From the IMG/VR virus record IMGVR_UViG_2778261139_000004, positions 1-39,211 of that record: a stretch of 39,211 nucleotides of DNA; one strand, 5' to 3'. Position numbers and translations under genes: made by a program. The DNA comes from a virus. Taxonomy: Duplodnaviria > Heunggongvirae > Uroviricota > Caudoviricetes. Positions 14,385-30,961 of the stretch are shown here, in pieces. A model generated the notes under the pieces. That model was not told the DNA's origin and ran no database searches. It saw nothing but the letters and a program-made list of their open reading frames with translations. Each line of letters starts with the position of its first letter. The first letter of the stretch is position 1.

Positions 14385-16147
14385 AAAATCTCCACAATAT
14401 TGCTGGTATTGGCGGACTCGCCCTGCAGCGGTTCGTTAAACAGTGCGTGCATTGTTGCCCAGGCCAGATCGGCATGGCTGGCTTCTTCACTGCGGCTTGC
14501 TTCATAGGTCGGGCGGTTGCCGCTGGCGGTGGTTGCGCGACGGATTGCCATAAATGACTGCGCTATGTCGGTGTGTCCGGCGTCAAACTCCAGACGACGG
14601 TGACTGATAATGTCGTAGGCCTTGAGTACCAGGGCGTTTTTAACGTTGGGGTTGTAGACAAACTCCCGGACGGCTGGAAAAAACGCTTTCACGTTTTCAT
14701 AAACCCCGTGACCGACACCCGTCGAGTCGATGCCGATATAGGTCACGTTGTACTGTTCGGTCAGTTTTTTGATGGCGTCAGCCTGGGCGCGGAAGTCCAT
14801 CCCGCGCCACTGGTGACGCTCAAGAATGCGGAACTTACCGCCCGGCACGGCTGGCGGTGCCACCACCACGCATCCGGCGCTGTCGCCGTTTTGCGTACCT
14901 TTTGCCGGGTCATAACCGATCCACACCTCGCGCCAGCCAAACGGGCGCAGGGCCAGTGCATGAAAGTCGGTCCAGACTTCCCAGCTGTCCACCATGCACG
15001 CCTGCAGCTCGCTGAGCGGGAACACGGACGCGAGATCGTCCACGAACTCGCACATCAGCAGGTTCTGGTATTCGTCCGGGCTGTACTCCATGCGCAACTG
15101 GTCAAGGTCGAACAGGTTACAGCCGCCGCGCACCGCATCTTCCACGGTGACTATCTGGCGGTATTGCCCGTCTGCGCACAGCAGGCCGGGGGCCAGATTG
15201 CTATGGGACAGGTCGATGTCCACCTTGTCGGCTTTGTTGCGTCCACGGTTGAACAGCGCACCGGACCAGAACGGATAAGCACTGTGGGTCAGGCTGGATG
15301 GCGTGGAAAAATAGGTTTGTCGCCATTTTTTGTGAATAGCCATACCGGAAGCCACTTTGCGCAGCTCCTGGAATTTCGGTATCCAGAAATATTCATCCAG
15401 ATACAGGTTGCCGTGGTAACTCTGGGCCGTGCGGGCATTGGTGCCGAGGAAGTAAAGAGTGGCCCCGTTGGGAAGCACCATCGGATCGCCTTTCAGCTCC
15501 ACCTCCACTTCTTTGGCGAAGTCGATGATGTACTGTTTAAAGACGTGGGCCTGTGCCTTACTGGCGGAAAGGAAAATCTGGTTACGTCCGGTTAGCAGGG
15601 CGTCAATCAGGGCTTCACGGGCAAAATAGAAGGTCGCGCCGATCTGGCGTGACTTCAGCAGGTTGCGGATGCGGTTGGTTTTTCCGGCTTCCCACCAGTG
15701 GCGCTGGTAGTTGAACATGGAGGAATGGAAGATTTCTTCCAGCTTCTCAATCTGTTCATCGGTGAAAACATTCTTTTCCGGCTGACGGCGCGGGCCTTTG
15801 TTGCGGTTGGCGACGTTAGGGTTTAAGTCGGCTTCGTTGCCGCCATTGTTAAACTTGCCGATCCGCGCGTGGCGCTCCGACTGGCGCGCCAGCAGGTCAA
15901 TTTCTTTAAAGTCTTTCCCTTCTTTGTGCTCCTTCATGATGAGCTGGCAGTAGCGTGCGGCGGTGGTGAGCTGCATCTGATCCAGCGGCCCATAGTAACC
16001 CCACTTGTCGCGTTTTTTCCAGCTGTGAACGGTTGCAACTTTCTCGCCCAGCATTTCAGCAATGCGGGCTACGCGGTATCCCTGAAAGTACAGCAGCATG
16101 GCCTGCCGACGGGGATCGAGATCTGCGGATGTCAGTGTGGTGTTCAT
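14381..16147 (-). CDS. P: Terminase large (ATPase) subunit (P2 gpP-like)
   Basis: 588-aa ORF divergent from the O-N-M-L operon, in the P2 position. Confidence 0.85.
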   Translation of the reverse strand: MNTTLTSADLDPRRQAMLLYFQGYRVARIAEMLGEKVATVHSWKKRDKWGYYGPLDQMQLTTAARYCQLIMKEHKEGKDFKEIDLLARQSERHARIGKFNNGGNEADLNPNVANRNKGPRRQPEKNVFTDEQIEKLEEIFHSSMFNYQRHWWEAGKTNRIRNLLKSRQIGATFYFAREALIDALLTGRNQIFLSASKAQAHVFKQYIIDFAKEVEVELKGDPMVLPNGATLYFLGTNARTAQSYHGNLYLDEYFWIPKFQELRKVASGMAIHKKWRQTYFSTPSSLTHSAYPFWSGALFNRGRNKADKVDIDLSHSNLAPGLLCADGQYRQIVTVEDAVRGGCNLFDLDQLRMEYSPDEYQNLLMCEFVDDLASVFPLSELQACMVDSWEVWTDFHALALRPFGWREVWIGYDPAKGTQNGDSAGCVVVAPPAVPGGKFRILERHQWRGMDFRAQADAIKKLTEQYNVTYIGIDSTGVGHGVYENVKAFFPAVREFVYNPNVKNALVLKAYDIISHRRLEFDAGHTDIAQSFMAIRRATTASGNRPTYEASRSEEASHADLAWATMHALFNEPLQGESANTSNIVEIF

Positions 16148-16193
16148 GGCACAAACCTACAGCCTTGAATAAAGGCTTTCCCCGCCTGCGGTT

Positions 16194-16211
16194 TGTGTGG
16201 TTGTCGGTACA
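16194..16211. promoter_or_regulatory. TGT-N12-ACA element, candidate Ogr-dependent late promoter activator site in the P/O divergent region
   Basis: TGTGTGGTTGTCGGTACA in the 142-bp region between divergent P and O. Confidence 0.35.
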
Positions 16212-16289
16212 AATACCGCGCATTGTTTCACTGCCCCCATCACCGCAACCATAAGGCTCCAGTAAGTTTTTTCTAACGGAGCACGGCTC

Positions 16290-17123
16290 ATGACAGTGAA
16301 AGCAAAGCGTTTTCGCATCGGGGTGGAAGGTGCCACCACCGACGGACGCGAAATCCAGCGTGAATGGCTGGAACAGATGGCAGCCAGCTACAACCCGGCG
16401 GTGTACACCGCGCTGATTAACCTTGAGCACATCAAGTCTTATCTGCCGGACAGCACCTTTAACCGCTACGGCAAGGTGACGGCGCTGTTTGCTGAAGAAA
16501 TCACGGAAGGTCCGCTGGCAGGCAAGATGGCATTGTATGCCGACGTTGAGCCAACGGAGTCCCTGGTGGAACTGGTGAAAAAAGGCCAGAAATTATTCAC
16601 CTCTATGGAAGTCAGCCCGAAGTTCGCTGATACGGGCAAAGCCTACCTGGTTGGCCTGGCCGCCACTGATGATCCCGCCAGTCTGGGTACGGAAATGCTG
16701 ACATTCAGCGCCAGTGCAGCCCATAACCCGCTGGCAAACCGCAAGCAGAATCCCGCCAATCTTTTTACCGCTGCAGAGGAAACGGTGATCGAACTGGAAG
16801 AAATCCAGGAGGACAAGCCGTCCCTGTTTGCCCGTGTCACGGCGCTGTTTACCAAAAAAGAGCAGTCCGATGACGCCCGGTTCTCTGATGTGCATAAGGC
16901 CGTGGAGCTGGTCGCCACTGAGCAGCAGAACCTGAGCGCACGCACCGAAAAATCCCTGTCTGAGCAGGAAGAACGCCTGTCTGAGCTGGAGACTGCTCTG
17001 CAGGAGCAGCAAACCGCCTTTAACGAACTGGTGAATAAGCTGAGTCATGAAGACAGCCGCCAGGACTACCGCCAGCGTGCAACAGGCGGTAACGCCCCCG
17101 CTGACACTCTGACCAATTGCTGA
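16290..17123 (+). CDS. O: Capsid scaffolding protein (P2 gpO-like)
   Basis: 277 aa, first gene of the rightward head operon; coiled-coil-rich C-terminus. Confidence 0.85.
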   Translation: MTVKAKRFRIGVEGATTDGREIQREWLEQMAASYNPAVYTALINLEHIKSYLPDSTFNRYGKVTALFAEEITEGPLAGKMALYADVEPTESLVELVKKGQKLFTSMEVSPKFADTGKAYLVGLAATDDPASLGTEMLTFSASAAHNPLANRKQNPANLFTAAEETVIELEEIQEDKPSLFARVTALFTKKEQSDDARFSDVHKAVELVATEQQNLSARTEKSLSEQEERLSELETALQEQQTAFNELVNKLSHEDSRQDYRQRATGGNAPADTLTNC

Positions 17124-17139
17124 TGGAGCACAAAACCTG

Positions 17140-18198
17140 ATGAAGAAGAATACCCGCTTTGCTTTTAACGCTTACCTGCAGCAACTGGCACGTCTGAACG
17201 GTGTGGCAGTTGAAGAACTGTCCAGCAAGTTCACTGTAGAGCCGTCTGTGCAGCAGACGCTGGAAGACCAGATCCAGCAGTCCGCCGCTTTCCTGACGCT
17301 GATTAACGTCACGCCAGTGCCTGAGCAGTCCGGTCAGCTGCTGGGGCTGGGTGTTGGCAGCACCATTGCCGGAACCACTGACACCACCGCGAAAGAGCGT
17401 GAACCTGTCGATCCGACGCTGATGGTCGATGTGGAATACAAATGCGAACAGACCAACTTTGACACGGTGCTGACCTACGCGAAGCTGGACCTGTGGGCGA
17501 AGTTTCAGGATTTCCAGGTGCGTATCCGTAACGCCATCGTGAAACGTCAGGCACTGGACCGCATCATGATTGGCTTTAACGGCGTGAAGCGTGCGAAAAC
17601 CTCTAACCGTAGCGAAAACCCGCTGCTGCAGGATGTGAACAAAGGCTGGCTGCAGAAAATCCGTGAGGATGCACCGGATCACGTCATGGGCAGCACCATC
17701 ACGGGCGGTGAAACCACACCGGGTGCGGTGAAAGTCGGGAAAGGTGGCGAATATGCCAACCTGGACGCCGTGGTGATGGATGCCGTCAATGAGCTTATCG
17801 ACGTGGTCTACCAGGACGATGACGATCTGGTGGTGATTTGCGGTCGTGAACTGCTGTCTGACAAGTATTTCCCGCTGGTCAACAAAGAGCAGGAAAACAG
17901 TGAAAAACTGGCTGCCGATATGATCATCAGTCAGAAACGCATGGGTGGCCTTCAGGCCGTGCGTGCGCCGTTCTTCCCGCCGAATGCGCTGCTGATCACC
18001 CGTCTGGATAACCTGTCCATCTACTGGCAGGAAGACACCCGCCGCCGTTCAGTTATCGACAACCCGAAACGTGACCGGATTGAAAACTTTGAATCCGTTA
18101 ACGAAGCCTATGTGGTTGAGGACTACCGCTGCGCCGCACTGGTGGAAAACATCCAGATTGGTGATTTCAGCGCCGCCGCAGCCGAAACCGGAGCGTAA
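17140..18198 (+). CDS. N: Major capsid protein (P2 gpN-like)
   Basis: 352-aa ORF after the scaffold gene. Confidence 0.9.
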   Translation: MKKNTRFAFNAYLQQLARLNGVAVEELSSKFTVEPSVQQTLEDQIQQSAAFLTLINVTPVPEQSGQLLGLGVGSTIAGTTDTTAKEREPVDPTLMVDVEYKCEQTNFDTVLTYAKLDLWAKFQDFQVRIRNAIVKRQALDRIMIGFNGVKRAKTSNRSENPLLQDVNKGWLQKIREDAPDHVMGSTITGGETTPGAVKVGKGGEYANLDAVVMDAVNELIDVVYQDDDDLVVICGRELLSDKYFPLVNKEQENSEKLAADMIISQKRMGGLQAVRAPFFPPNALLITRLDNLSIYWQEDTRRRSVIDNPKRDRIENFESVNEAYVVEDYRCAALVENIQIGDFSAAAAETGA

Positions 18199-18201
18199 TC
18201 C

Positions 18202-18852
18202 ATGAGCCTGAGTCCCGCACGGCAGCATCGCCTGCGCGTTCAGGCTGAACAGGCCGCCCGCGAGGGCGGCAGTGTTCGCCACGCATCGGGCTATGATCTG
18301 ATGCTGCTGCAACTGGCGGAAGACCGCCGCCGTCTCAAGGGCGTTCAGTCCACGGTCAAAAAAGCGGAAATCAAGGTGGAGCTGCTGCCGAAGTACGCCG
18401 CCTGGGCAGAGGGTGTCCTGGCTGCCGGAGGCGCTCAACAGGATGACGTGCTGATGTACGTGATGCTGTGGCGCATTGATGCCGGAGATTATGCCGGGGC
18501 GCTGGAGATCGGGCGTCATGCCCTGCGTCATGGCTGGGTGATGCCGCTGGGTAACCGCAACGTGCAGACCGTGCTGGCAGAGGAAATGGCAGATGCAGCC
18601 CAGAGCGCAATGCTTGCCGCCACCGGCTTTGATGCCGATCTGTTGTTGCAGACGCTGGAGCTGACAGACGGTCTGGATATGCCGGACCAGTCACGGGCGC
18701 GTCTGCATAAAGCGATTGGCGCTGTCCTGAGTGAAAGCAATCCGGCTTCCGCCCTTAATCATCTCAACCATGCGTTACAGCTCGATCCCCGCTGTGGCGT
18801 GAAAAAAGACAAACAGCAGCTGGAGCGCAGACTGCGCAATGACAGCCGCTGA
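18202..18852 (+). CDS. M: Terminase small (endonuclease) subunit (P2 gpM-like)
   Basis: 216-aa ORF in the P2 M position. Confidence 0.8.
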   Translation: MSLSPARQHRLRVQAEQAAREGGSVRHASGYDLMLLQLAEDRRRLKGVQSTVKKAEIKVELLPKYAAWAEGVLAAGGAQQDDVLMYVMLWRIDAGDYAGALEIGRHALRHGWVMPLGNRNVQTVLAEEMADAAQSAMLAATGFDADLLLQTLELTDGLDMPDQSRARLHKAIGAVLSESNPASALNHLNHALQLDPRCGVKKDKQQLERRLRNDSR

Positions 18853-18946
18853 CAGAACGTGCCCCGCGCACGGGCGGCACGGGGTGGCGAAAGGCACTGC
18901 CACATCAAAACCCCGTCCACCGCCCTCTATTTCAGGAGAAAGCAGC

Positions 18947-19411
18947 ATGAAGTTTGTTGCGCCAGAACAGGCACCGGAACAGGCGGAAATCATCAGGAAT
19001 ACGCCGTTCTGGCCTGATGTGAACTTGTCGGAGTTTCGCAGTGTCATGCGCACTGACGGTACGGTGACGCAGCCGCGTTTAAAGCAGGTTGCGCTGTCGG
19101 CAATTTCGGAGGTCAACGCAGAGCTGTATGAGTTTCGCAGACGTCAGCAGATGCTGGGGTATGCGTCGCTGGCTGAGGTTCCGGCGGAACAGCTGGACGG
19201 CAAAAGTGAGCGCATTCAGCATTATTTCAACGCGGTTTACTGCTGGGCACGCGCCATGCTCAACGAACGTTACCAGGACTATGACGCCACGGCGTCCGGT
19301 GTGAAGCGGGGCGAGGAACTGGCGGAAGCAAGCGGTGATTTGTGGCGTGACGCCCGCTGGGCCATCAGCCGGGTGCAGGATGCGCCGCACTGCACAGTGG
19401 AGCTTATCTGA
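18947..19411 (+). CDS. L: Head completion/stabilisation protein (P2 gpL-like)
   Basis: ATG at 18947 with GGAGAAAG upstream; the ORF track extends upstream to 18839. Confidence 0.8.
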   Translation: MKFVAPEQAPEQAEIIRNTPFWPDVNLSEFRSVMRTDGTVTQPRLKQVALSAISEVNAELYEFRRRQQMLGYASLAEVPAEQLDGKSERIQHYFNAVYCWARAMLNERYQDYDATASGVKRGEELAEASGDLWRDARWAISRVQDAPHCTVELI

Positions 19412-19614
19412 TGAAAGTGCGTGCGCATCAGTATGACACGGTGGACGCGCTTTGCTGGCGTCATTACGGGCGCACGCAGGGTGTCACGGAGCAGGTACTG
19501 AAGGCAAATCCGGGGCTTGCCGAATACGGCCCCTTTTTACCTCACGGGCTGCAGGTGGAGCTGCCGGACATTCCGACCACCACCACCGTGCAGACCGTCC
19601 AGCTATGGGACTGA
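19411..19614 (+). CDS. X: Tail protein X (P2 gpX-like)
   Basis: 67-aa ORF in the P2 X position. Confidence 0.75.
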   Translation: MKVRAHQYDTVDALCWRHYGRTQGVTEQVLKANPGLAEYGPFLPHGLQVELPDIPTTTTVQTVQLWD

Positions 19615-19617
19615 ATT

Positions 19618-19833
19618 ATGACGCTTGAGCGAATCAGCGCCTTTATCACGTATTGCATCGCCGTCGTGCTGGCCTGGCTGGGCGATTTGTCCATCAAGGA
19701 TGCCTCAACGCTGGGCGGCCTGATGATTGGTGTGCTGATGCTGGCTATCAACTGGTACTACAAACATAAAGCCTACCAGCTTCTGCGCGACGGGCAGATC
19801 TCGCGGGAGGACTATGAATCCATCAATCGTTAA
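19618..19833 (+). CDS. Holin
   Basis: 71 aa with two hydrophobic helices and a charged C-terminus, immediately upstream of the lysozyme gene. Confidence 0.65.
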   Translation: MTLERISAFITYCIAVVLAWLGDLSIKDASTLGGLMIGVLMLAINWYYKHKAYQLLRDGQISREDYESINR

Positions 19834-20329
19834 ACGCTGCCTTGTCGGGGCCGTGCTGGCTATTGCAGCTACGTTGCCGGGTTTTCAGCAGCTTCACACC
19901 TCCGTGGAGGGGCTGAAACTAATTGCCGATTACGAAGGCTGCCGTCTGCAGCCGTATCAGTGCAGTGCAGGTGTCTGGACCGACGGCATTGGTAATACAT
20001 CGGGCGTCATTCCCGGCAAAACAATCACGGAACGACAGGCAGCAGAAGGGCTGATTTCCAACGTGCTGCGTGTGGAGCGGGCGCTGGAAAGGTGTGTGAA
20101 GCAACAGCCGCCGCAGAAGGTATATGACGCTACGGTGTCGTTTGCCTTCAACGTGGGAACGGGCAATGCCTGCAGTTCCACACTGGTGAAATTACTCAAT
20201 CAGCGGCGCTGGGCAGAAGCGTGCCGACAGTTGCCGCGCTGGGTTTATGTGAAAGGTGTGTTTAATCAGGGGCTGGATAACCGCCGTGCGCGGGAGATGG
20301 CCTGGTGCTTTAAAGGAGCTGGACTATGA
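19814..20329 (+). CDS. Endolysin (lysozyme family) with an N-terminal hydrophobic, possibly signal-anchor-release segment
   Basis: 171 aa; N-terminal Gly/Ala-rich hydrophobic stretch (LVGAVLAIAATL) followed by a lysozyme-like E ... D ... T region (DYEG ... GVWTDGIGNT). Confidence 0.7.
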   Translation: MNPSIVKRCLVGAVLAIAATLPGFQQLHTSVEGLKLIADYEGCRLQPYQCSAGVWTDGIGNTSGVIPGKTITERQAAEGLISNVLRVERALERCVKQQPPQKVYDATVSFAFNVGTGNACSSTLVKLLNQRRWAEACRQLPRWVYVKGVFNQGLDNRRAREMAWCFKGAGL

Positions 20330-20754
20330 CGCGTGCGCTGGCGGTAGTGGCGGCGCTGGCACTCGTTGCGCTGGGCTGGCAGTCGTGGCGGCTTAACAGC
20401 GCCAGCCACACCATCGAAACGCAGCGCGCGGCGCTGAAAAGTAAAGCGCACGAACTAACGAAGAAAAATAGCCAGCTGATCAGTCTGTCCATTCTGGCTG
20501 AAACCAATAACCGGGAGCAGGCGCGGCTCTATGCCGAAGCAGAACAGACCAGCGCGCTGCTGAGACAACGACAACACCGGATCGAGGAACTGAAACGTGA
20601 GAACGAGGATTTACGCCGCTGGGCTGATACTCCTTTGCCTGCTGACATTATCCGGCTGCGAAAACGTCCGGTATTCACCGGAGGTGCAGCTTACCGTCAG
20701 TGGTTGTCCGCGAGTGACGCCGTGTCGGCTGGATCAGGCAACGCCGCGCACTAA
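20326..20754 (+). CDS. i-spanin (Rz / LysB-like)
   Basis: 142 aa with an N-terminal TM segment and a coiled-coil-like charged region. Confidence 0.65.
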   Translation: MTRALAVVAALALVALGWQSWRLNSASHTIETQRAALKSKAHELTKKNSQLISLSILAETNNREQARLYAEAEQTSALLRQRQHRIEELKRENEDLRRWADTPLPADIIRLRKRPVFTGGAAYRQWLSASDAVSAGSGNAAH

Positions 20755-20887
20755 CGGTGATCTGAACGCGTTGCTGGATGAAACGGAGGCCGCCTGGGCG
20801 GTCTGTGCAGACAAAGTGGACATGATTATTGCGTGTCAGGAGCGAAACAGTGAACAAACCACAATCCCTGCGCCACGCCCTCAATAA
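20597..20887 (+). CDS. o-spanin (Rz1 / LysC-like outer-membrane lipoprotein) in an overlapping frame
   Basis: Signal peptide with lipobox LSGC (MRTRIYAAGLILLCLLTLSGC); encoded in a different frame overlapping the i-spanin 3' end and the R 5' end. Confidence 0.55.
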   Translation: MRTRIYAAGLILLCLLTLSGCENVRYSPEVQLTVSGCPRVTPCRLDQATPRTNGDLNALLDETEAAWAVCADKVDMIIACQERNSEQTTIPAPRPQ

Positions 20888-21281
20888 AGCAGTGCCTTAT
20901 GTCCGCAATAACCCGGACAAACTGCATCTGTTTGTGGATAACGGTTCGCTGGTTGCCACGGGGGCCAGCTCCATGTCATGGGAGTACCGCTATACCCTGA
21001 ACGTGGTGATTGAGGATTTCAGCGGCGACCAGAATCTGCTGATGGCCCCGGTTTTGCTGTGGCTGCGGGATAATCAGCCTGATGCCATCAATAACCCGGC
21101 GTTACGGGAAAAGTTATTCACCTTTGAGGTGGATATTCTGCGCAATGATGTCTGTGATATCAGCCTTAACCTGCAACTGACGGAGCGTGTGCTGGTCAGC
21201 ACTGATGGCAGTGTGTCGAGTGTTGAAGCTGTAGCGGAACCCGATGAACCTGAAGAAATGTGGACGGTGAAACGTGGCTGA
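20850..21281 (+). CDS. R: Tail completion protein R (P2 gpR-like)
   Basis: GTG start at 20850 preceded by AGGAG; the N-terminus (NKPQSLRHALNKAV ... FVDNGS) resembles P2 R as recalled. Confidence 0.75.
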   Translation: MNKPQSLRHALNKAVPYVRNNPDKLHLFVDNGSLVATGASSMSWEYRYTLNVVIEDFSGDQNLLMAPVLLWLRDNQPDAINNPALREKLFTFEVDILRNDVCDISLNLQLTERVLVSTDGSVSSVEAVAEPDEPEEMWTVKRG

Positions 21282-21720
21282 ATTGCAGAAGGTGGACGAC
21301 TGGTTGAGTGCCTTGCTGGCGAATCTGGAGCCAGCCGCAAGAAGCCGTATGATGCGCCAGCTGGCGCAAGAACTGCGCCGGACACAGCAGCAGAACATCA
21401 GGATGCAGCGCAATCCAGATGGCAGTAGTTATGAGCCGCGCAGAGTAACAGCACGCAGCAAAAAGGGGCGCATCAAACGTCAGATGTTTGCAAAGCTGCG
21501 CACCAAAAAATACCTGAAAACTGCCGCCAGCGCCGATTCTGCCAGCGTGCAGTTTGAAGGTAAGGTGCAGCGCATTGCCCGCGTTCATCACTACGGCCTG
21601 CGTGATCGTGTTAGTCGTAAGGGGCCGGAGGTACGTTATGCTGAGCGGCGGCTATTGGGTTTCAACGATGAAACTACTCTTCAAATTAAAACAATTTTAT
21701 CTAGTTACTTAATGGGGTGA
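21274..21720 (+). CDS. S: Tail completion protein S (P2 gpS-like)
   Basis: 148-aa ORF with a GTG start overlapping the R stop; the last codons are AT-rich. Confidence 0.75.
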   Translation: MAELQKVDDWLSALLANLEPAARSRMMRQLAQELRRTQQQNIRMQRNPDGSSYEPRRVTARSKKGRIKRQMFAKLRTKKYLKTAASADSASVQFEGKVQRIARVHHYGLRDRVSRKGPEVRYAERRLLGFNDETTLQIKTILSSYLMG

Positions 21721-21806
21721 AGATTCACGCTTTTGCTAGCTTCTACAAGGTTTTATGCTTCTAAACACTGTATGTTTAATTTGACATATAACTATTTGTA
21801 CAAGCG

Positions 21807-23036
21807 GTGAGTATGAAAAAGCAAGATGAGTCCCCCAAAGCTGATAAATCAAATTTAGATAAAAGTGAGTCTGAACCACCAAAAGCGAACTCTATGGCAG
21901 ATGCCATGGCCATAGCGGCAGAGGTTGCTACGACAGCAACGTCAGTTCAAACATCAACCTTTGCAATTATCGCGGATTTTCTACGTTCAGGTGGTATAGA
22001 AAAACTAACTTCAAATGCTATCAAAAATTTAGAAATAAAAGTAAAGGGCCATTCTCAAGCGACAAGAACTACGGTATTGAGGAACCTGAAGACCTCTTTC
22101 AAAGAGGAGAATTTAGTTCTTGTTTTAGGTGCTGGCATTTCTTTAGATTACAGCATACCAACATGGAGTGAATTATTAAAGCGGCTATTGGCAAGAGCTT
22201 TGGATGATAAAAATGAAAATCAGAAAATGGTATCGGTTTTGTTTAATGAGGTTTTCGGTCCGAACGCACTCATAGCAGCCAGATATCTAAAACTACACTT
22301 TGATGGTATTAATACTCCCTTGGAAAAAGAAATTCAGCATGTTTTGTATGAATATTATCAGGAGGAAGAAAGCAGTACATTGAAAGCAATCAAGAAATTG
22401 TGCATATCGGCAGGCAAGTCACCAGGTCTAGATTCCGTTATTACATATAACTATGATGATATTTTGGAACAGACATTAACTAGAGCTGATGTTGGTATAA
22501 AGTATAAGGTGATTTCAAAGACGGGGCAGCATGCAAAAAATGATGAACTGCCGATCTACCATGTGCATGGCTATCTCCCATTGCAGGGGAAAGTTGAACT
22601 CGATGACACGCTAGTCCTTTCTGATGAAAGCTATCATAGGCAATACATGGATTTATACCATTGGAGCAATATGGTTCAGTTGAATAAATTCAAAGATGGA
22701 AATTGCCTGTTTGTTGGTCATTCCTTTACAGATCCAAACCTCAGAAGGTTGATGGATACAGCCAAAAAACTTAGAGGGAATGATTCTAAACCTCATTATT
22801 TAATTAAGTGTAGACATTCGAAAGAAGATGTGATTGCTAATATTCAAAGAATTGTTAGTGACTCAAGAAATGGATTTGATAATAAACTGAATATTAATGA
22901 GGATGCAATCGCGACCTCTCTTTTACAGACAGTGCATACTTTTGAAGAAATCGATGCTAATTCATTTGGCGTGAATGTTATTTGGATCGACTCTTACGAT
23001 GAGATTGCACCAATACTTAATGATCTAACACAATAA
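21807..23036 (+). CDS. SIR2-like (SIR2_2 / DUF4020-type) domain protein, putative NAD-depleting defence effector (cargo)
   Basis: 409 aa with the SIR2-like motifs VLVLGAGIS ... PTWSELL, ITYNYDDILEQ, IYHVHGYL, LVLSDESY and LFVGHSFTDPNL. AT-rich, inserted between S and V. Confidence 0.75.
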   Translation: MSMKKQDESPKADKSNLDKSESEPPKANSMADAMAIAAEVATTATSVQTSTFAIIADFLRSGGIEKLTSNAIKNLEIKVKGHSQATRTTVLRNLKTSFKEENLVLVLGAGISLDYSIPTWSELLKRLLARALDDKNENQKMVSVLFNEVFGPNALIAARYLKLHFDGINTPLEKEIQHVLYEYYQEEESSTLKAIKKLCISAGKSPGLDSVITYNYDDILEQTLTRADVGIKYKVISKTGQHAKNDELPIYHVHGYLPLQGKVELDDTLVLSDESYHRQYMDLYHWSNMVQLNKFKDGNCLFVGHSFTDPNLRRLMDTAKKLRGNDSKPHYLIKCRHSKEDVIANIQRIVSDSRNGFDNKLNINEDAIATSLLQTVHTFEEIDANSFGVNVIWIDSYDEIAPILNDLTQ

Positions 23037-23047
23037 TCTCCCTAAGT

Positions 23048-23065
23048 TGTGCCAGAAATGGCACA
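23048..23065. promoter_or_regulatory. TGT-N12-ACA dyad, candidate Ogr-dependent late promoter element for the V operon
   Basis: TGTGCCAGAAATGGCACA just upstream of V; could alternatively act as a terminator hairpin for the SIR2 gene. Confidence 0.35.
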
Positions 23066-23113
23066 GCTTTAAATCCTATCCTAATGACGGCAGCATTTGG
23101 CAATCTAATTGCC

Positions 23114-23692
23114 ATGAACGCTCAACTAACAGAAATCATGCGCCTTATCACCAATCTGATCCGCACTGGTGTAGTCACCGAAGTGGACCGGGAAAACTGG
23201 CTTTGTCGGGTGAAAACGGGCGACCTTGAAACCAACTGGATTAACTGGCTGACACTGCGCGCGGGCAAATCGCGCACCTGGTGGAAACCGTCTGTGGGTG
23301 AGCAGGTTGTGCTGTTCAGCCTTGGCGGCAATCTGGAAACCGCGTTTGCCCTGCCTGCGGTCTACTCAAACCAGTTTCCGCCACCTTCAGACTCTGAGGA
23401 CGGTAACGTGACGGAATACCCAGACGGTGGCTGGTTTGAATACGAACCCGCCACCGGGCGCTGGTATGTCAGGGGCATCAAATCCATGGTCATTGAGGCC
23501 ACTGACAACATCACCCTGAAAACCAGTGAGTTTGTACTGGAGGCTGACCGCACGCGCATTAACAGCGAAGTGGTGATCAATGGTGGCGTTACCCAGGGCG
23601 GCGGTGCAATGAGTTCTAACGGAATCGTGGTTGATACGCATCAGCATACAGGCGTCCTGAAAGGCGGTGATACCACCGGAGGCCCGGTATGA
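23114..23692 (+). CDS. V: Baseplate spike/assembly protein V (P2 gpV-like)
   Basis: N-terminus MNAQLTEIMRLITNLIRTGVV resembles P2 V as recalled (... IRTGI ...); the ORF track start at 23084 is upstream of the likely ATG at 23114. Confidence 0.85.
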   Translation: MNAQLTEIMRLITNLIRTGVVTEVDRENWLCRVKTGDLETNWINWLTLRAGKSRTWWKPSVGEQVVLFSLGGNLETAFALPAVYSNQFPPPSDSEDGNVTEYPDGGWFEYEPATGRWYVRGIKSMVIEATDNITLKTSEFVLEADRTRINSEVVINGGVTQGGGAMSSNGIVVDTHQHTGVLKGGDTTGGPV

Positions 23693-24048
23693 CGCTTTAT
23701 ATCGGTATGAATAATACCAGCGGTAAAACCATTACTGATATTGGCCATCTGCGCCAGTCGGTGCGGGACATTTTGCTGACGCCGCAGGGTAGCCGCATTG
23801 CCCGTCGGGATTATGGTTCCCTGCTGTCGGCACTGATAGACCAGCCACAAAATCCGGCGTTACGCCTGCAGGTCATGTCGGCAGTGTATGTGGCGCTGAG
23901 TCGCTGGGAGCCACGGCTGACGCTGGATTCCATCACCATCAACAGCAACTTTGACGGTTCAATGGTGGTGGAGCTGACCGGGCGGCGTAATAACGGTGTG
24001 CCTGTTTCCCTTTCCGTATCAACAGGAGCAGAGAATGGCAGTGATTGA
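23689..24048 (+). CDS. W: Baseplate protein W (gp25-like)
   Basis: 119-aa ORF overlapping the V stop, in the P2 W position. Confidence 0.8.
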   Translation: MTLYIGMNNTSGKTITDIGHLRQSVRDILLTPQGSRIARRDYGSLLSALIDQPQNPALRLQVMSAVYVALSRWEPRLTLDSITINSNFDGSMVVELTGRRNNGVPVSLSVSTGAENGSD

Positions 24049-24943
24049 CCTTTCGCAGTTGCCTGCGCCGCAGATTGTGGATGTGCCCGACTTTGAGACG
24101 CTGCTTGCCGAACGCAAGGCAGAATTTGTGGCGCTTCATCCGAAAGATGAACAGGAGGCTGTGATGCGTACGCTGGAACTGGAATCTGAACCCGTCACCA
24201 AATTGTTGCAGGAGAACGCGTACCGTGAGTTGCTTCTGCGCCAGCGCATTAACGAAGCCGCACAGGCGGTGATGGTGGCTTACGCGATGGGCGGGGACCT
24301 TGACCAGCTCGCTGCCAACTACAACGTGAAACGCCTGACGGTGACGCCTGCTGATGATGACGCTGTGCCGCCCGTTGCGGCAGTGATGGAAAGCGATGAA
24401 GCGTTACGCCTGCGTGTGCCTGCAGCCTTTGAGGGGCTTTCAGTTGCGGGACCAACTGCAGCTTATGAATTTCATGCCCGAAGCGCTGACGGTCGGGTGG
24501 CGGATGCCAGTGCAACCAGTCCGGCGCCTGCAGAGGTGGTGCTGACTGTCCTTAGCCGCGAAGGCGACGGAACAGCAGAAAAAGACCTGCTGGATGTGGT
24601 GGAGAACGCCCTGAACAGTGAGAACGTCCGCCCGGTGGCAGATCGTCTGACGGTTCGCAGCGCAGAAATCATCCCGTACCGGGTGGAAGCCACCATTTTT
24701 CTCTATCCGGGGCCGGAAGCCGAGCCGGTAATGGCAGCGGCAAAAGCCAGCCTGCAGAAGTACATCGCCAGTCAGACGCGGCTTGGTCGGGATATTCGCC
24801 GTAGCGCCATTTTTGCCGCCCTGCATGTTGAGGGTGTGCAGCGTGTGGAGCTGGCTTCGCCGCTGGCGGATGTGGTCCTGAACAAAACGCAGGCGGCATC
24901 ATGTACGCAGTGGAGCGTGACCAACGGGGGAACGGATGAATAG
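24035..24943 (+). CDS. J: Baseplate assembly protein J
   Basis: ATG at 24035 (MAVIDLSQLP); the ORF track extends to 23996. Confidence 0.8.
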   Translation: MAVIDLSQLPAPQIVDVPDFETLLAERKAEFVALHPKDEQEAVMRTLELESEPVTKLLQENAYRELLLRQRINEAAQAVMVAYAMGGDLDQLAANYNVKRLTVTPADDDAVPPVAAVMESDEALRLRVPAAFEGLSVAGPTAAYEFHARSADGRVADASATSPAPAEVVLTVLSREGDGTAEKDLLDVVENALNSENVRPVADRLTVRSAEIIPYRVEATIFLYPGPEAEPVMAAAKASLQKYIASQTRLGRDIRRSAIFAALHVEGVQRVELASPLADVVLNKTQAASCTQWSVTNGGTDE

Positions 24944-25541
24944 TCTGCTGCCACCGGGTTCAACACCACTGGAGCGCCGACTGGCGCAGACCTGCAGCGG
25001 GATTTCTGATCTGCAGGTGCCGCTGCGTGACTTGTGGAATCCGGCTACCTGCCCGGTCAGCTTCCTGCCTTATCTCGCCTGGGCGTTCTCTGTGGATCGC
25101 TGGGACGAGGGCTGGACGGAAAGCGTCAAACGACAGGTGGTGAAGGATGCTTTTTATATTCATCAGCATAAAGGAACCACCAGTGCCGTGCGGCGGGTGG
25201 TGGAGCCGTTCGGCTTCCTGATCCGCATTATTGAGTGGTGGCAGACCGGAGAAACACCGGGTACGTTTCGCCTGGATATCGGCGTGCAGGACCAGGGCAT
25301 CACTGAAGATACCTATCTGGAACTTGAGCGACTGATAAGCGATGCCAAACCATGTAGCCGTCACATGATCGGCATGTCCATCAATCTGCAGACCAGCGGC
25401 CCGCATTGGGTGGGAGCCGCCAGCTATCTTGGCGAAGAAATCACGATCTATCCGTATATCAACGAAACAATTATTTCCGGCGGCACCGCGCATGAAGGTG
25501 GGGCGGTCCATGTTATTGACACAATGAGAGTGAATCCATGA
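24936..25541 (+). CDS. I: Tail protein I
   Basis: 201-aa ORF overlapping the J stop. Confidence 0.8.
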   Translation: MNSLLPPGSTPLERRLAQTCSGISDLQVPLRDLWNPATCPVSFLPYLAWAFSVDRWDEGWTESVKRQVVKDAFYIHQHKGTTSAVRRVVEPFGFLIRIIEWWQTGETPGTFRLDIGVQDQGITEDTYLELERLISDAKPCSRHMIGMSINLQTSGPHWVGAASYLGEEITIYPYINETIISGGTAHEGGAVHVIDTMRVNP

Positions 25542-27022
25542 GCACAAAATTTTATACCCTGCTGACGGATATTGGCGCGGCGAAACTTGCCAGCGCCGCC
25601 GCGCTCGGTGTGCCTTTAAAAATTACCCATATGGCGGTGGGCGATGGTGGCGGAACATTGCCGACGCCGGACGCAAAGCAGAGTGCACTGGTAAATGAGA
25701 AACGCCGGGCTGCGCTGAATATGCTCTATATCGACCCGCAGAACAGCAGCCAGATTATTGCTGAACAGGTGATCCCTGAAAACGAGGGCGGTTGGTGGAT
25801 ACGTGAAGTGGGCCTGTTTGATGAGTCAGGGGCATTGATTGCCGTGGGAAACTGCCCGGAAAGCTATAAACCGCAACTAGCTGAAGGCAGCGGGCGCACC
25901 CAGACCGTGCGCATGGTGCTGATTACCAGCAGTACGGACAATATCACCCTGAAAATCGACCCTGCTGTAGTGCTGGCAACCCGTAAATACGTGGATGATG
26001 AAGTCCTGGAATTAAAGCTGTATGTGGATGACCAGATGAGAAACCACATTGCCGCACAAGATCCTCATACCCAGTATGCGCAGAAACATAATCCGACATT
26101 TACCGGAGAACCAAAAGCGCCGACGCCTGCAGCAGGAAATAACACCACGCGGATTGCGACCACTGAGTTTGTTCAGGCCGCTATTACTGCTCTGATTAAC
26201 GGTGCGCCAGCCACGCTGGACACACTGAAAGAAATTGCCGCAGCCATTAACAATGACCCGAAATTCAGTACCACCATTAACAATGCGCTGGCACTAAAAG
26301 CCCCGCTGTCGAGTCCGGCACTCACCGGAACGCCAACAGCACCTACTGCGGCACAGTCGGTCAACAATACACAGATTGCCACTACAGCTTTTGTGAAATC
26401 AGCGATTGCAGCAATGGTGGGTTCTGCACCTGCGGCACTGGATACACTGAACGAACTGGCGGCGGCATTGGGGAATGATCCGAACTTTGCCACGACAATG
26501 CTTAATGCGCTGGCAGGTAAACAACCGCTGGACAATACGCTTACCAATTTGAGTGGAAAGGATGTAGCTGGTCTTCTCGCATACCTTGGTTTGGGAGAAG
26601 GCTCTGCATTACCTGTTGGTGTGCCTGTTCCATGGCCTTCAGCCACACCGCCAACAGGCTGGCTGAAATGCAACGGTGCGGCATTTTCTGCTGAAGAATA
26701 CCCGGAACTGGCAAAGGCTTATCCAACAAATAAATTACCTGATTTACGCGGTGAGTTTATTCGTGGCTGGGATGATGGGCGCGGGGTGGATTCCTCTCGT
26801 GGTTTGTTGACATCTCAAGACCATTTATTTGCTTCTCATGGGCACTGGTTTGACAAGTACTATGCGCTAACAGGTTTTGATCCAACGGGAGGTCGGTTCG
26901 TAGTTACGGCTGATGCTTTCGGGGAACTTATTACGGCAAATTCAATTTCTACGGTATCGGTTGGTGGTTCTGAAACCCGGCCGCGCAACGTCGCATTTAA
27001 CTATATCGTGAGGGCAGCCTGA
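25538..27022 (+). CDS. H: Tail fibre protein H, with the C-terminal variable part inside the invertible segment
   Basis: 494 aa with Ala/Thr-rich internal repeats; the C-terminal region lies beyond the recombination site at about 26586. Confidence 0.85.
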   Translation: MSTKFYTLLTDIGAAKLASAAALGVPLKITHMAVGDGGGTLPTPDAKQSALVNEKRRAALNMLYIDPQNSSQIIAEQVIPENEGGWWIREVGLFDESGALIAVGNCPESYKPQLAEGSGRTQTVRMVLITSSTDNITLKIDPAVVLATRKYVDDEVLELKLYVDDQMRNHIAAQDPHTQYAQKHNPTFTGEPKAPTPAAGNNTTRIATTEFVQAAITALINGAPATLDTLKEIAAAINNDPKFSTTINNALALKAPLSSPALTGTPTAPTAAQSVNNTQIATTAFVKSAIAAMVGSAPAALDTLNELAAALGNDPNFATTMLNALAGKQPLDNTLTNLSGKDVAGLLAYLGLGEGSALPVGVPVPWPSATPPTGWLKCNGAAFSAEEYPELAKAYPTNKLPDLRGEFIRGWDDGRGVDSSRGLLTSQDHLFASHGHWFDKYYALTGFDPTGGRFVVTADAFGELITANSISTVSVGGSETRPRNVAFNYIVRAA

Positions 27023-27624
27023 TGAATAAAGCCGTATTAAATAGCGAACTCATTACTACAAAGGCAGGAAACATTACCGTTTATAATTTTGATGCTGAGA
27101 CGAAGGAATATCTTTTCACATCAACCGAATATCTTGTTGTGGGTGTCGGTATTCCGGCGTATTCCTGTTTAGATGCTCCTGGTACATATAAGGCTGGTTA
27201 TACTATCTGCCGTTCAGCAGATTTAAAATCATGGGAATATATGCCAGACCATCGCGGTGAAATCGTTTTTAGCACCGAAACAGGGGAATCAAAAGAAATC
27301 ACAGCTCCGGGTGATTACCCTGATAATACAACCACTATCGCCCCGTTAACGCCATACGATAAATGGGATGGTGAGAAATGGGTGACGGATACCGAGGCAC
27401 AGCACGGCGCAGCAGTAGATGCAGCAGAAGCACAGCGCCAGTCGCTGATTGATACTGCAATGGCCTCCATCAGTCTGATTCAGCTGAAATTGCAGGCCGG
27501 ACGTAAACTGACGCAGGCAGAAACAACCCGCCTTAACGCTGTGCTGGATTACATTGACGCGGTGACGGCAACAGATACCAGCACCGCGCCGGATGTCATC
27601 TGGCCTGAACTGCCGGAGGCGTAG
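27022..27624 (+). CDS. G: Tail fibre assembly protein (G-like)
   Basis: 200 aa, ends ... APDVIWPELPEA. Confidence 0.8.
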   Translation: MNKAVLNSELITTKAGNITVYNFDAETKEYLFTSTEYLVVGVGIPAYSCLDAPGTYKAGYTICRSADLKSWEYMPDHRGEIVFSTETGESKEITAPGDYPDNTTTIAPLTPYDKWDGEKWVTDTEAQHGAAVDAAEAQRQSLIDTAMASISLIQLKLQAGRKLTQAETTRLNAVLDYIDAVTATDTSTAPDVIWPELPEA

Positions 27625-28048
27625 GCCATTCAATATCTGGCGCACCGGAAGTATCGACCAGCTCCAGTGCGTCCAGATAATCCAGCCACAAATTATATTG
27701 CGCCAGTTCATCATCTTTCAGACGACCAATAGCGGCTTTACCGGGCCATTGCTTACTGTTCATGTATTCGTTGGCCTGGTTAATTAGTAGCTGTCTTTCT
27801 GATTCAGTAATTTCAATAAGTTCTTCATGCGTGGGTGGAGGAATATCTGCCCACGCAGGCAGCCCATCATCTCCGGCAATACGGATTTTTCCTTGTGGCG
27901 GTTCAGCCATAAACTCACTGATAATATTTTGATTTACTTCCTTAGCGTCTGATAAATCCCATCCCTCTGATTTATATTTATCAATCATATCCACAGGGAA
28001 AAAAGCATTATGCCTTGCGCTATAAACATATTCGTTCATATAAATCAC
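27596..28048 (-). CDS. Alternative tail fibre assembly protein (G') in inverted orientation
   Basis: 150 aa, ends ... APDIEWPTPP, paralogous to the G C-terminus; convergent with G. Confidence 0.75.
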   Translation of the reverse strand: MIYMNEYVYSARHNAFFPVDMIDKYKSEGWDLSDAKEVNQNIISEFMAEPPQGKIRIAGDDGLPAWADIPPPTHEELIEITESERQLLINQANEYMNSKQWPGKAAIGRLKDDELAQYNLWLDYLDALELVDTSGAPDIEWPTPPAVQAR

Positions 28049-28059
28049 CCTGAATAAAA

Positions 28060-28434
28060 TTACTCACCAACAGCCCACCAACTGTAATTCATCGATACCG
28101 TGTCGCTGGTTGATGACGTTCTGTAAGCAGAATTAAAGCCGGTTAACGTTGGGCCTTCTGCAGTCATCACGAACCCTCGCCCAGCGCCTAAAGGCGCACC
28201 GCCATCACCAGAATGAGTAAGCATGGCGCAGTCCGCTTTTTTGGGGAAAGGGATGCTGAATGTAATTCTCATTGTTTGCGTCGATAATGTCGGCGTAACC
28301 GCACCACGACCATATTGCAGGATTTTCCCGTTAGGTAATTTCATCCATCCATCACCACTGGCAAAAGAGGCCATGTCCGGTATCTGATTTTCCCCTGTCC
28401 CCACATCCCGTTTTGCCGCTTCTCCCAAACCAAC
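28060..28434 (-). CDS. Promoterless alternative tail-fibre C-terminal cassette (H'), expressed only after inversion
   Basis: Minus-strand reading frame running from the right crossover site to a stop at 28060; it shares the LGLGE junction with H. The Met in the ORF track is unlikely to be a real start. Confidence 0.55.
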   Translation of the reverse strand, partial: VGLGEAAKRDVGTGENQIPDMASFASGDGWMKLPNGKILQYGRGAVTPTLSTQTMRITFSIPFPKKADCAMLTHSGDGGAPLGAGRGFVMTAEGPTLTGFNSAYRTSSTSDTVSMNYSWWAVGE

Positions 28435-28500
28435 GTTTAAGAAAATGCAGAGATAATGGCTAACTGGCATCATCCCCGGTTTTTATTCAGGGGATTGATC

Positions 28501-29058
28501 ATGCTTATTGGCTATGTACGCGTGTCAACAAATGACCAGAACACCGATTTGCAACGTAATGCACTGAACTGCGCGGGATGTGAGCGGATTTTTGAGGATA
28601 AAATCAGTGGCACTAAGTCCGACAGACCGGGGCTGAAAAAACTGCTCAGGACACTATCGGCAGGAGACACGCTGGTCGTCTGGAAGCTGGACAGGTTGGG
28701 GCGCAGTATGCGGCATCTTGTTACGCTGATAGAAGAGTTGCGCCAGCGTGGCGTGAATTTCCGAAGCCTGACTGACAGTATTGATACCAGTACCCCAATG
28801 GGCCGTTTCTTTTTTCATGTCATGGGTGCCCTGGCTGAAATGGAACGCGAACTGATAGTTGAACGCACTATGGCAGGGCTGGCTGCAGCTCGTGCCAAAG
28901 GCAGAGTAGGTGGACGCCGTCCTAAGTTGACCACCGAACAGTGGGCACAGATTGGACGTTTACTCGAGGCCGGAGAATCAAGACAGCGTATTGCGCTGAT
29001 TTTTGACGTGGGCGTTTCTACCATTTATAGAAAATTTCCGGCGAATAAGAGCAATTAA
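28501..29058 (+). CDS. pin: Serine DNA invertase (Pin/Gin/Hin/Cin family)
   Basis: MLIGYVRVSTNDQNTDLQRNAL ... with the catalytic serine in YVRVSTNDQ, DRLGRS, and a C-terminal HTH; very close to e14 Pin as recalled. Confidence 0.9.
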   Translation: MLIGYVRVSTNDQNTDLQRNALNCAGCERIFEDKISGTKSDRPGLKKLLRTLSAGDTLVVWKLDRLGRSMRHLVTLIEELRQRGVNFRSLTDSIDTSTPMGRFFFHVMGALAEMERELIVERTMAGLAAARAKGRVGGRRPKLTTEQWAQIGRLLEAGESRQRIALIFDVGVSTIYRKFPANKSN

Positions 29059-29115
29059 TCGCCCTGAATCAGCATTCTTTTGATTTTTCCTGTAAGCGGA
29101 CAAATACCGTCATTT

Positions 29116-29133
29116 TGTGTGAATAACGGCACA
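29116..29133. promoter_or_regulatory. TGT-N12-ACA element, candidate Ogr-dependent late promoter for the FI operon
   Basis: TGTGTGAATAACGGCACA about 75 bp upstream of the FI ATG, which has CAGGAGG as its Shine-Dalgarno. Confidence 0.35.
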
Positions 29134-29209
29134 ACTGCGATTAGCTGTTTGTCAGGCACAATCACTTCAACATAGGGCGAAGCCTAATCCAATCAGGAGG
29201 TTCGCCACT

Positions 29210-30382: not shown

Positions 30383-30391
30383 GGGGACAAC

Positions 30392-30907
30392 ATGGCTTTA
30401 CCACGCAAATTAAAACACCTGAACCTGTTTAACGACGGGAACAACTGGCAGGGGATCGTTGAGTCGCTGACGCTGCCGAAATTCACCCGCAAATATGAGA
30501 AGTATCGCGGCGGCGGAATGCCGGGGGCGGTGGATGTGGATCTGGGGCTTGATGACAGTGCTCTGGACACAGAATTTTCCATTGGTGGTACTGAACTGCT
30601 GCTGTTTAAGCAGATGGGCAAAGCCACTGTGGATGGCATCCAGCTGCGCTTTACTGGCTCTATCCAGCGTGACGATACCGGGGAAGTGCAGGCTGTGGAG
30701 CTTGTGGTGCGTGGACGTCACAAAGAAGTGGATTCCGGCGAGTGGAAGACGGGCGAAAGCAACACCACCAAAGTGACCAGTACCAACAGCTACGCGAAGC
30801 TGACCATCAATGGTGAGGTGCTCTATGAAGTGGACCTTATCAACATGGTGGAAATTGTGGACGGTGTGGACCTGATGGAAGCGCACCGCAACGCCCTCGG
30901 CCTCTAA
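30392..30907 (+). CDS. FII: Tail tube protein (P2 FII-like)
   Basis: 171-aa ORF immediately after the sheath gene. Confidence 0.9.
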   Translation: MALPRKLKHLNLFNDGNNWQGIVESLTLPKFTRKYEKYRGGGMPGAVDVDLGLDDSALDTEFSIGGTELLLFKQMGKATVDGIQLRFTGSIQRDDTGEVQAVELVVRGRHKEVDSGEWKTGESNTTKVTSTNSYAKLTINGEVLYEVDLINMVEIVDGVDLMEAHRNALGL

Positions 30908-30961
30908 TGTATCTGAACGGCGCGGGATACCGCGCCAGAACCCAATTTACAGGACAATAAA

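Follow-up and report, generated by a model that had tools for sequence, protein, structure and literature searches.

The locus considered here raises the question of where, between two structural genes of a phage, the backbone ends and the exchangeable cargo begins. The DNA analysed, 39,211 nucleotides (nt) of the IMG/VR virus record IMGVR_UViG_2778261139_000004 and referred to below as the window, is a P2-like (Peduoviridae) prophage in which a gene of the SIR2_2 family lies between the tail-completion gene S and the baseplate spike gene V. P2-like phages have three variable loci, the TO region, the Z/fun region and this S-V position, orf30 (PMC3091744; PMC6823313), which falls between two late operons, PO ending with S and PV beginning with V (PMC3931495). 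A first-pass annotation made from the sequence had reported that the final codons of S turn AT-rich in continuity with the SIR2 gene and had suggested that the cargo junction lies within the 3′ end of S. The observation is confirmed and the suggestion supported, and the present analysis goes beyond them in two respects: the replaced segment of S appears to be a homologous, functional-looking helix and not cargo sequence, and the right junction is equally sharp and lies at the start codon of V, so that the PV late promoter is inside the variable block. In our reading, to which we give a probability of roughly three in four, the S tail, the SIR2 gene and PV make up one cassette that would be exchanged by homologous recombination at the P2 orf30 hotspot. 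The stretch 21274-23200 is 100% identical to E. coli NZ_LR778148.1, and the features of the locus are as follows.

20829-21281: gene R (PF06891)
21274-21720, plus strand: gene S, 148 amino acids (aa; PF05069, 141 bits; TIGR01635, 120 bits)
21274-21660, plus strand: S codons 1-129, the backbone part of this tail-completion or virion-morphogenesis protein, ending with the invariant L127-L128-G129
21661-21720, plus strand: S codons 130-148 and the stop codon, apparently part of the cassette, an AT-rich replacement for the C-terminal amphipathic helix, FNDETTLQIKTILSSYLMG
21721-21812, plus strand: S-SIR2 spacer, 92 nt, AT-rich (33.7% GC), containing TTGACA at 21781-21786
21813-23036, plus strand: SIR2_2 cargo gene, 407 aa (PF13289)
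23037-23113, plus strand: SIR2-V spacer, 77 nt, a cassette-borne copy of the PV late promoter with an Ogr-type dyad, TGTGCCAGAAATGGCACA, at 23048-23065 and a weak -10 just before the ATG of V
23114-23692, plus strand: gene V, baseplate spike, first gene of the PV operon (PF04717 and Apex motif; start as in RefSeq)

A compositional switch within the 3′ end of S

The S protein ends in ...RRLLGFNDETTLQIKTILSSYLMG before its stop codon (an end also quoted as ...LLGFNDETTLQIKTILSSYLMG), and the GC content of the gene falls from 56.8% in codons 1-129 (0.64, 0.46 and 0.61 at the first, second and third codon positions) to 28.1% in codons 130-148 (0.26, 0.32 and 0.26). With 37.2% in the SIR2 gene and 44% in the spacer holding PV, the variable block lies at 28-44% GC, as against 55-57% in S and V (55.6% in V itself). 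The tail is poorer in GC than any stretch of backbone of the same size: among 20,772 overlapping 57-nt segments of the late genes at 13500-21600 and 23114-35900, none is as AT-rich, the lowest having 29.8% GC, and only 0.08% of the 157-nt backbone segments are at or below the 32.5% GC of positions 21650-21806. The switch at the 3′ end of S is therefore genuine and beyond chance fluctuation. At the second codon position the tail has the same GC content as the canonical tail of an empty-site relative (0.32), and it is at the first and third positions that GC collapses, which is what is expected of a peptide of similar type encoded with AT-rich codons. Codons 1-129 are 91-97% identical at the nucleotide level to relatives that carry other cargo or none.

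S tails at empty and occupied sites

The comparison of S C-termini with and without an insert, which the first-pass annotation had proposed as a check, was made on 155 analysable S-V loci drawn from genomes and IMG/VR, 124 of which have an S at least 70% identical to that of the window and form the close set. All 79 empty sites in the close set carry the canonical tail LLGVNDxVExxTRDxxLxWLAG, in 14 variants with a GC content of 0.50-0.67, and have an S-V spacer of 68 nt; an equally AT-rich tail was not seen at any of them. At 44 of the 45 occupied sites the tail is non-canonical and AT-shifted, with the same length and amphipathic pattern. These reduce to 33 unique combinations of tail and insert length with a mean GC content of 0.37, against 0.56 at empty sites (Mann-Whitney p ~9e-7 on unique sequences). 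The pattern can be followed in individual phages: in the insert-free 500465-1, 4LV2017 and Fels-2, S ends LLGVND(D/E)VE..TRD..L.WLAG at normal GC with V 68 nt away, and Cartapus, vB_EcoM-813R9 and Kp4865-2 hold other inserts at the S-V site, each with its own AT-rich S end.

More than 20 unrelated cargo clusters are found at the occupied sites. The block in the window belongs among the S-V (orf30) hotspot cassettes of P2-like phages by its flanks (S of PF05069 and V of PF04717), by a gene order like the S-Orf30-V of P2, by the empty or differently filled state of the site in relatives and by its deviant GC content.

Limits of the variable block and the PV late promoter

Sequence comparison by BLAST places the left junction inside S as well, the alignments of the window to 11 relatives all stopping at 21624-21672 (S codons ~118-133). 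Homology restarts at 23113/23114, the start codon of V, in 10 of the 11 relatives and at 23098 for the empty site. The variable block accordingly extends over ~21650-23113 and contains the S C-terminal helix, the spacer, the cargo and PV.

The TGT-N12-ACA motif is the consensus of the Ogr-dependent P2 late promoters PP, PO, PV and PF (PMC3931495). The PV dyad of the window is centred 57 nt upstream of the V ATG and has the layout of P2 late promoters, with a dyad ~55 nt upstream of the start, a weak -10 and no -35, and a response to Ogr is predicted; the same dyad stands at the other three late promoters of the window, at 16136, 16194 and 29116. Of 49 unique relatives, 47 have TGT-N12-ACA 63-66 nt ahead of the V ATG, and besides the dyad only A-11 and T-7 relative to the ATG are conserved. 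Outside these motif positions the sequence is cassette-specific, and the GC content of the PV region is 0.26-0.47 at occupied sites versus 0.48-0.64 at empty ones. The P2 reference record carries annotations for the PV activator site and for the start of transcription, which it places at the first base of V. The V mRNA of the window appears to be leaderless too, as that annotation already implies for P2, and no Shine-Dalgarno sequence was found at 23048-23116 or in 49 related loci. A start of V at ATG 23084, as given in the program-made list of open reading frames (ORFs), was rejected: it would add an upstream in-frame extension of 10 codons lying inside the cassette-specific PV promoter, which is unconserved, and the real start according to RefSeq is 23114.

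The ends of the block bear no marks of a mobile element. Its sole ORF is SIR2, so it does not qualify as an insertion sequence (IS) or transposon, and neither terminal inverted repeats nor target-site duplications were found at the block ends. A single direct repeat, the 9-nt TACTTAATG, is present at 21706-21714, near the end of S, and at 23014-23022, near the end of SIR2; it was matched by 21 of 300 shuffles, its position is not conserved in other alleles, and it is probably due to chance. Transposition and site-specific insertion were rejected for want of consistent direct or inverted repeats at the ends of the block.

Apparent exchange of the C-terminal helix of S

The nature of the replaced segment was examined in the best 120 matches to S from a search of 5.8 billion proteins, which include 119 cluster representatives with a recognisable motif. 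Among these are 84 distinct tails, all following the invariant L127-L128-G129; many invariant columns precede G129, which is itself the last, and none follows it. When the tails of the loci are pooled with these, 98 of 115 distinct tails have 18-20 aa after LLG, and the hydrophobic register is well kept, with positions 130, 142, 145 and 146 hydrophobic in at least 96% of tails and positions 134, 137 and 143 in 61-85%. AlphaFold2 predicts residues 132-147 of S as a helix, with a predicted local distance difference test (pLDDT) score of 86-91; no match to a solved structure of an S homologue was found in the PDB. In this model the boundary of the block would coincide with a structural one, a loop ending in LLG being followed by a single terminal amphipathic helix. 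The tails would accordingly be homologous replacements, functional rather than debris, and presumably equivalent in function.

The position of the junction varies by degrees. Of 30 distinct occupied tails, 20 first depart from the canonical sequence at residues 130-132 and the others at points up to residue 148, and tail GC drops as the number of non-canonical residues rises. Within the largest cargo cluster, consisting of related minus-strand ORFs of 231-252 aa, only the last residues are changed in loci L013 and L031, and most of the tail is replaced in L093 and L100. This is the pattern expected from crossovers at varied points in a diverged homologous segment.

Linkage of tail, spacers and cargo among SIR2 alleles

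SIR2 homologues at 69-76% identity form at least four allele groups and, in the cases whose surroundings were inspected, occupy the S-V site in P2-like prophages of enterobacteria or in remnants of these, with the exception of locus L180. The S tail, the spacers and the copy of PV are each particular to the allele group. The tails read FNDETTLQIKTILSSYLMG in allele A (the window), FCTESNDAISIILLRYLTS in B, LSRGIDEKVKLFFLRYLLG in C and FDDISQIKHVLYRYLVS with variants in D, and related alleles have related tails, as in the QIK...YL shared by A and D. Between the window and allele B, nucleotide identity is 0.92 in the S body and 0.90 in V, as against 0.56 in the tail, 0.46 and 0.59 in the two spacers and 0.68 in SIR2. 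Three allele-D loci give the reverse picture, with S bodies at 0.73-0.78, tails at 0.80-0.90, spacers at 0.73-0.85 and SIR2 at 0.80-0.88. Over 15 pairs from six SIR2-bearing loci, which are non-independent and make p-values indicative only, tail identity has a rank correlation with that of the two spacers of rho 0.61 and 0.65 and with that of the S body of rho -0.36. Tail identity follows the cassette, cargo and spacers together, and not the S body or V. Other recurrent tails in the sample go with one cargo apiece, for example two near-identical tail variants with a 2229-nt two-gene cargo in 5 loci.

Two homologue contexts outside intact prophages deserve description. The SIR2 homologue at L180:2501-3760, of 74% identity, has no recognisable prophage around it and adjoins SymE-toxin and AraC-type genes, with no S remnant upstream; a TGT-N12-ACA dyad, TGTGTCAATAATGTTACA, is found 14 nt past its stop codon, which suggests either a decayed P2-type cassette or a dyad that doubles as the terminator hairpin of the SIR2 homologue. 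An Enterobacter prophage remnant (L175/L176:1141-5953) has kept an intact S with an allele-D tail and the SIR2 gene, and otherwise only a portal fragment and the first codons of V; it adjoins an Asp-Al_Ex/TrkA_C transporter gene, and a gene of the same family occurs at 36592-38277, near the right end of the window. Right after the S stop of this allele-D locus is a perfect 13-bp palindrome (L175:2412-2440, TGCTAACTTAAAC/GTTTAAGTTAGCA with a 3-nt loop), degenerate in L177 and missing from the spacer of the window, which could be an operator or what is left of a terminator.

Proposed homologous exchange and the points against it

The block boundaries, the linkage of tail, spacer and cargo, and the functional patterns retained within the block are direct observations. 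Exchange between homologous flanks would account for them together: the boundaries lie in conserved flanks, the block is linked internally, the flanks are incongruent with it, and scars of transposition are missing. In the proposed scheme, related phages and prophages would recombine homologously across the S-V site, with the left crossover in the conserved body of S, most often just after the invariant LLG codons, and the right one in the conserved 5′ end of V. What lies between these anchors, namely the S helix, spacer, cargo and PV, would be inherited together and shielded from homogenisation with other phages. The trapped segments would then be constrained by function only, that is, by a fixed-length amphipathic helix, the TGT-N12-ACA spacing and a weak -10, and for this reason the tail and the promoter may have come to share the AT-richness of the cargo.

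Several points weigh against this reading. The evidence for recombination consists of comparative patterns, and the AT-rich tail and promoter could stem from an AT-rich donor phage, from AT-biased drift in a segment that escapes homogenisation or from selection, for instance for H-NS binding. The loci were chosen by similarity to the S of the window and many empty ones are near-duplicates, for which reason unique-sequence counts were used. The S model as a whole is poor (pLDDT 64, predicted template modelling score 0.29), the terminal helix being its only confident part. Taken by itself, the rank correlation of tail with SIR2 identity over the 15 pairs is not significant (rho 0.39, p 0.15). 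The sole exception among the occupied sites, L160, has a 1420-nt cargo behind a fully canonical tail; it was considered as an IS insertion and rejected as such, its 429-aa ORF being a P-loop ATPase-like cargo and not a transposase. P2 itself has an S tail of only mildly low GC content (0.47 vs 0.54), and its orf30 junction comes after the terminator downstream of S. As L160 and P2 indicate, a junction inside S is common in the lineage of the window and not obligatory.

Competing explanations and regulatory signals

An unlikely alternative, which may coexist with recombination, is that selection, and not hitch-hiking, holds the junction inside S because the AT-rich tail regulates the cargo: it might contain the promoter of the cargo gene, or it might be a nucleation site for H-NS, which would keep a toxic NADase silent. 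This alternative gains some ground from the S-SIR2 spacer, where no sigma-70-like pair was detected on the plus strand, a lenient promoter scan included, although consensus scans may miss weak signals. The spacer also has no intrinsic terminator by the same kind of scan and no inverted repeats, aligns poorly between SIR2 alleles, and folds as RNA only mildly better than its shuffles (z = -2.1). For alleles A, B and D the best -10-like hexamers are found instead within the tail, at about the same codons, namely AACAAT at 21690-21695 (A), TATAAT at L082:1917-1922 (B) and TATCGT at L177:2378-2383 or CATATT (D), the distance to the S stop being the same in A and B and ~10 nt shorter in D. Moreover, H-NS binds and silences another AT-rich island, one of defence genes, in a P2-like prophage (bioRxiv 10.64898/2026.09.05.749240). 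The tails next to opposite-strand cargo, whose promoter would be expected at the other end of the block, are, however, as AT-rich as the others (GC 0.21 in L003, 0.24 in L025, 0.32 in L006), the -10-like matches are weak and to be expected by chance where DNA is AT-rich, and the only good -10 of allele C is in its spacer. The hexamers in the tail are a lead only, possibly a cargo promoter embedded in coding sequence and possibly AT-rich noise. Read-through from PO into SIR2 during late transcription appears likely because no terminator was found after S; downstream of SIR2 no hairpin was found apart from the PV activator dyad, whose stem is 11 bp long and which lacks a T-run.

A related and quite improbable proposal is that each S-tail allele is functionally coupled to its cargo, through a promoter or H-NS site or through a variant helix that evades the defence gene of its own cassette. 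If coupling worked through such escape, the defence would act on superinfecting P2-like phages with the canonical helix, and the cassettes would be co-adapted pairs of S end and defence gene.

The C-terminus of S might also be hypervariable on its own account, through diversifying selection on a contact in the virion or evasion of a defence system or satellite, with the link to cargo and the AT-richness incidental, an explanation that we hold to be very improbable. The diversity of tails, 84 in 119 cluster representatives, is indeed very large, and no solved structure of a homologue was found to show what the helix contacts. Against it, a single tail type is common to the 79 empty sites, although their hosts include E. 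coli, Klebsiella and Salmonella among others and S-body divergence is 77-89%; variation occurs only where cargo is present, the tail tracks the spacers and cargo, and the fall of tail GC with non-canonical residues is as expected of imported sequence.

The first-pass annotation had further suggested that the TTGACA hexamer may belong to a promoter of the SIR2 gene. The hexamer is present at 21781-21786, a perfect -35 consensus 27 nt upstream of the SIR2 ATG at 21813, and allele D has TTGCAT at the corresponding place; the promoter role is not supported. The window has 12 copies of TTGACA versus 25.9 expected from shuffles, and because the hexamer is rarer than expected a single copy carries no statistical weight. 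No -10 hexamer lies 16-18 nt past it, where the sequence offers AGCGGT, GCGGTG and CGGTGA, a transcript would start at or after the ATG, and the hexamer is missing from alleles B and C; a sigma-70 promoter with TTGACA as its -35 was rejected on these grounds. The hexamer is also the right half of a TGT-N12-ACA match at 21769-21786, which raised the question of a second Ogr-responsive promoter serving SIR2. This was rejected as a chance match, since the window has 11 such matches where 10.5 are expected by chance, it lacks the TGTG...GG(C/T)ACA form of the true late-promoter dyads, transcription beginning about 55 nt from the centre of the dyad would start near 21832 inside the ORF, and the motif is absent from other alleles. 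In either form, a promoter at this place is extremely improbable.

Finally, a one-off illegitimate insertion of SIR2 that deleted S codons and left cargo sequence to supply a C-terminus by accident is largely refuted and has next to no probability: the tail does have cargo composition and just 45% nucleotide identity to the canonical tail, but S is still exactly 148 aa with its LLG, hydrophobic register and terminal Y/W-L and a predicted helix, the 115 tails follow one pattern, beyond what random AT-rich ORF ends would give, related SIR2 alleles carry related tails, a correctly spaced PV stands at the right side where random insertion would not be expected to leave one, and there is no target duplication.

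The SIR2 cargo gene

The product of the cargo gene scores 73.1 bits against PF13289 (SIR2_2; cutoff 24.5), and GAGIS106, N213 and H252 align to the nicotinamide adenine dinucleotide (NAD)-binding and catalytic motifs of the ThsA SIR2 domain. By its score, its GAGxS and its Asn and His residues it is assigned to the SIR2_2 family, whose members are NAD-utilising, and its PDB matches are the SIR2 NADases ThsA and KomC. The start codon at 21813 agrees with RefSeq. Among 5426 complete E. coli genomes, 4 carry the gene.

No complete PADLOC or NCBIfam system model was reached by the protein; the PADLOC matches are partial, to the SIR2 portions of the LmuA, ThsA and Dsr1 models, and no partner gene is present between S and V. 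Thoeris (ThsA and ThsB) was rejected, with only the SIR2 part of ThsA matching and no second gene, as were DSR1 and DSR2, given a length of 407 aa against more than 1000 aa and an NCBIfam Dsr1 score of 29.6 bits against a cutoff of 1400. The nearest non-phage relatives, ~50-58% identical, are single genes in Vibrio superintegron-like cassette arrays and in a Shewanella island. These distant homologues were considered as cargo of other P2-like phages and rejected, the Vibrio and Shewanella copies having no S or V nearby. In the Vibrio loci L172-L174 a ~52%-identical homologue, P0040, has at least three different sets of neighbours, all small and unrelated genes on one strand, among them acetyltransferases, glyoxalase, PIN and OLD-like TOPRIM genes, typical of Vibrio superintegron arrays. 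The occurrence of P0040 in such varied arrays indicates that the SIR2 gene works as a single-gene unit, and judging from its sequence the cargo is probably a stand-alone NAD-degrading defence effector.

Other islands of the prophage

The prophage has further AT-rich islands. At 1135-2860 on the minus strand, between the integrase (1-1068) and a CI-type repressor (2941-3822), is a two-gene island of 29-36% GC. Its products, in which Pfam recognises no domains, correspond to the PADLOC candidate system PDC-M18 (B, 176 aa, 5e-24; A, 400 aa, 2e-36). At 10080-13329 on the plus strand, a three-gene island of 31-35% GC occupies the classical gpA-portal (old/tin) hotspot, also called gpA-Q, and encodes a retron type I-A reverse transcriptase (4.9e-131), a PtuA-like ATPase (1.7e-193) and a PtuB-like HNH protein (1.5e-117). 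With the PDC-M18, retron and SIR2 islands, the prophage carries three separate defence-type islands. Short low-GC patches (32-41%) are also found at 26974-27090, 27850-28000 and 28974-29030, within the region of the tail-fibre and tail-fibre-assembly genes and just upstream of the sheath gene, at the Z/fun position of P2. They adjoin the minus-strand ORFs 27596-28048 and 28060-28473 and a 200-aa plus-strand ORF at 28456-29058, and may be another mosaic or invertible segment.

Significance and relation to known systems

The analysis gives base-level boundaries for one cargo hotspot of P2-like phages, in which the exchanged unit appears to include a replacement S helix and PV. It lends support to homologous recombination in flanking core genes as a fast route of defence swapping, a point left open by recent surveys. 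A non-canonical, AT-rich S tail may serve as a marker that predicts an occupied hotspot, and the tail allele would predict the cargo family. Annotation calls for some caution, as clusters of S at 90% identity are split mainly by the hitch-hiking tail. The 407-aa SIR2 protein, found in P2 hotspots and with relatives in Vibrio cassette arrays, is flagged as a candidate single-gene defence.

As an instance of phage mosaicism, the feature, with its SIR2 cargo and its junction near S codon ~130, is a new example of a kind of element already known, at a hotspot already described. P2-like prophages and P4 satellites that are otherwise almost identical rapidly swap diverse defence-type cargo at a small number of fixed sites (Rousset et al. 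2022, PMC9122126; Moura de Sousa et al. 2026, PMC13586616). The latter reports a tail-gene hotspot for P2 defence cargo and names homologous recombination in flanking genes as a candidate, unproven route of the swapping (PMC13586616). In the passages of PMC9122126 and PMC13586616 that were consulted, hotspots are described at the level of genes between core genes, and no cassette that takes in the 3′ terminus of a structural gene together with a late promoter was found mentioned there.

The closest comparison is with P2 orf30, which has the same position between S and V, an AT-rich cargo (34% GC) annotated as nonessential, a locus that is empty or differently filled in relatives, and the PV activator site and leaderless V start directly downstream. 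It differs in that the cargo of P2 is a minus-strand, membrane-type Orf30, whereas that of the window is a plus-strand SIR2 gene, and in that an O-operon terminator separates S from orf30 in P2, whereas none was detected in the window and the junction is at S codon ~130.

The classic lambdoid moron, described by Hendrix, Juhala and co-workers, has its own promoter and terminator and sits between intact genes. The block in the window resembles lambdoid mosaicism and morons as an extra gene of deviant composition between late genes, with function-preserving joints and apparent exchange via homologous flanks; unlike a moron, it brings replacement copies of elements belonging to its neighbours, and consensus scans, which may miss weak signals, identified no promoter or terminator of its own.

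At the level of the cargo protein, the comparison is with ThsA of Thoeris, KomC, DSR1/2 and SIR2-HerA, with which it shares the SIR2 fold family, GAGxS and the aligned catalytic Asn and His (N213, H252). It differs from these in lacking a Pfam-recognised SLOG or other sensor domain and a partner gene, and in being far shorter than DSR1.

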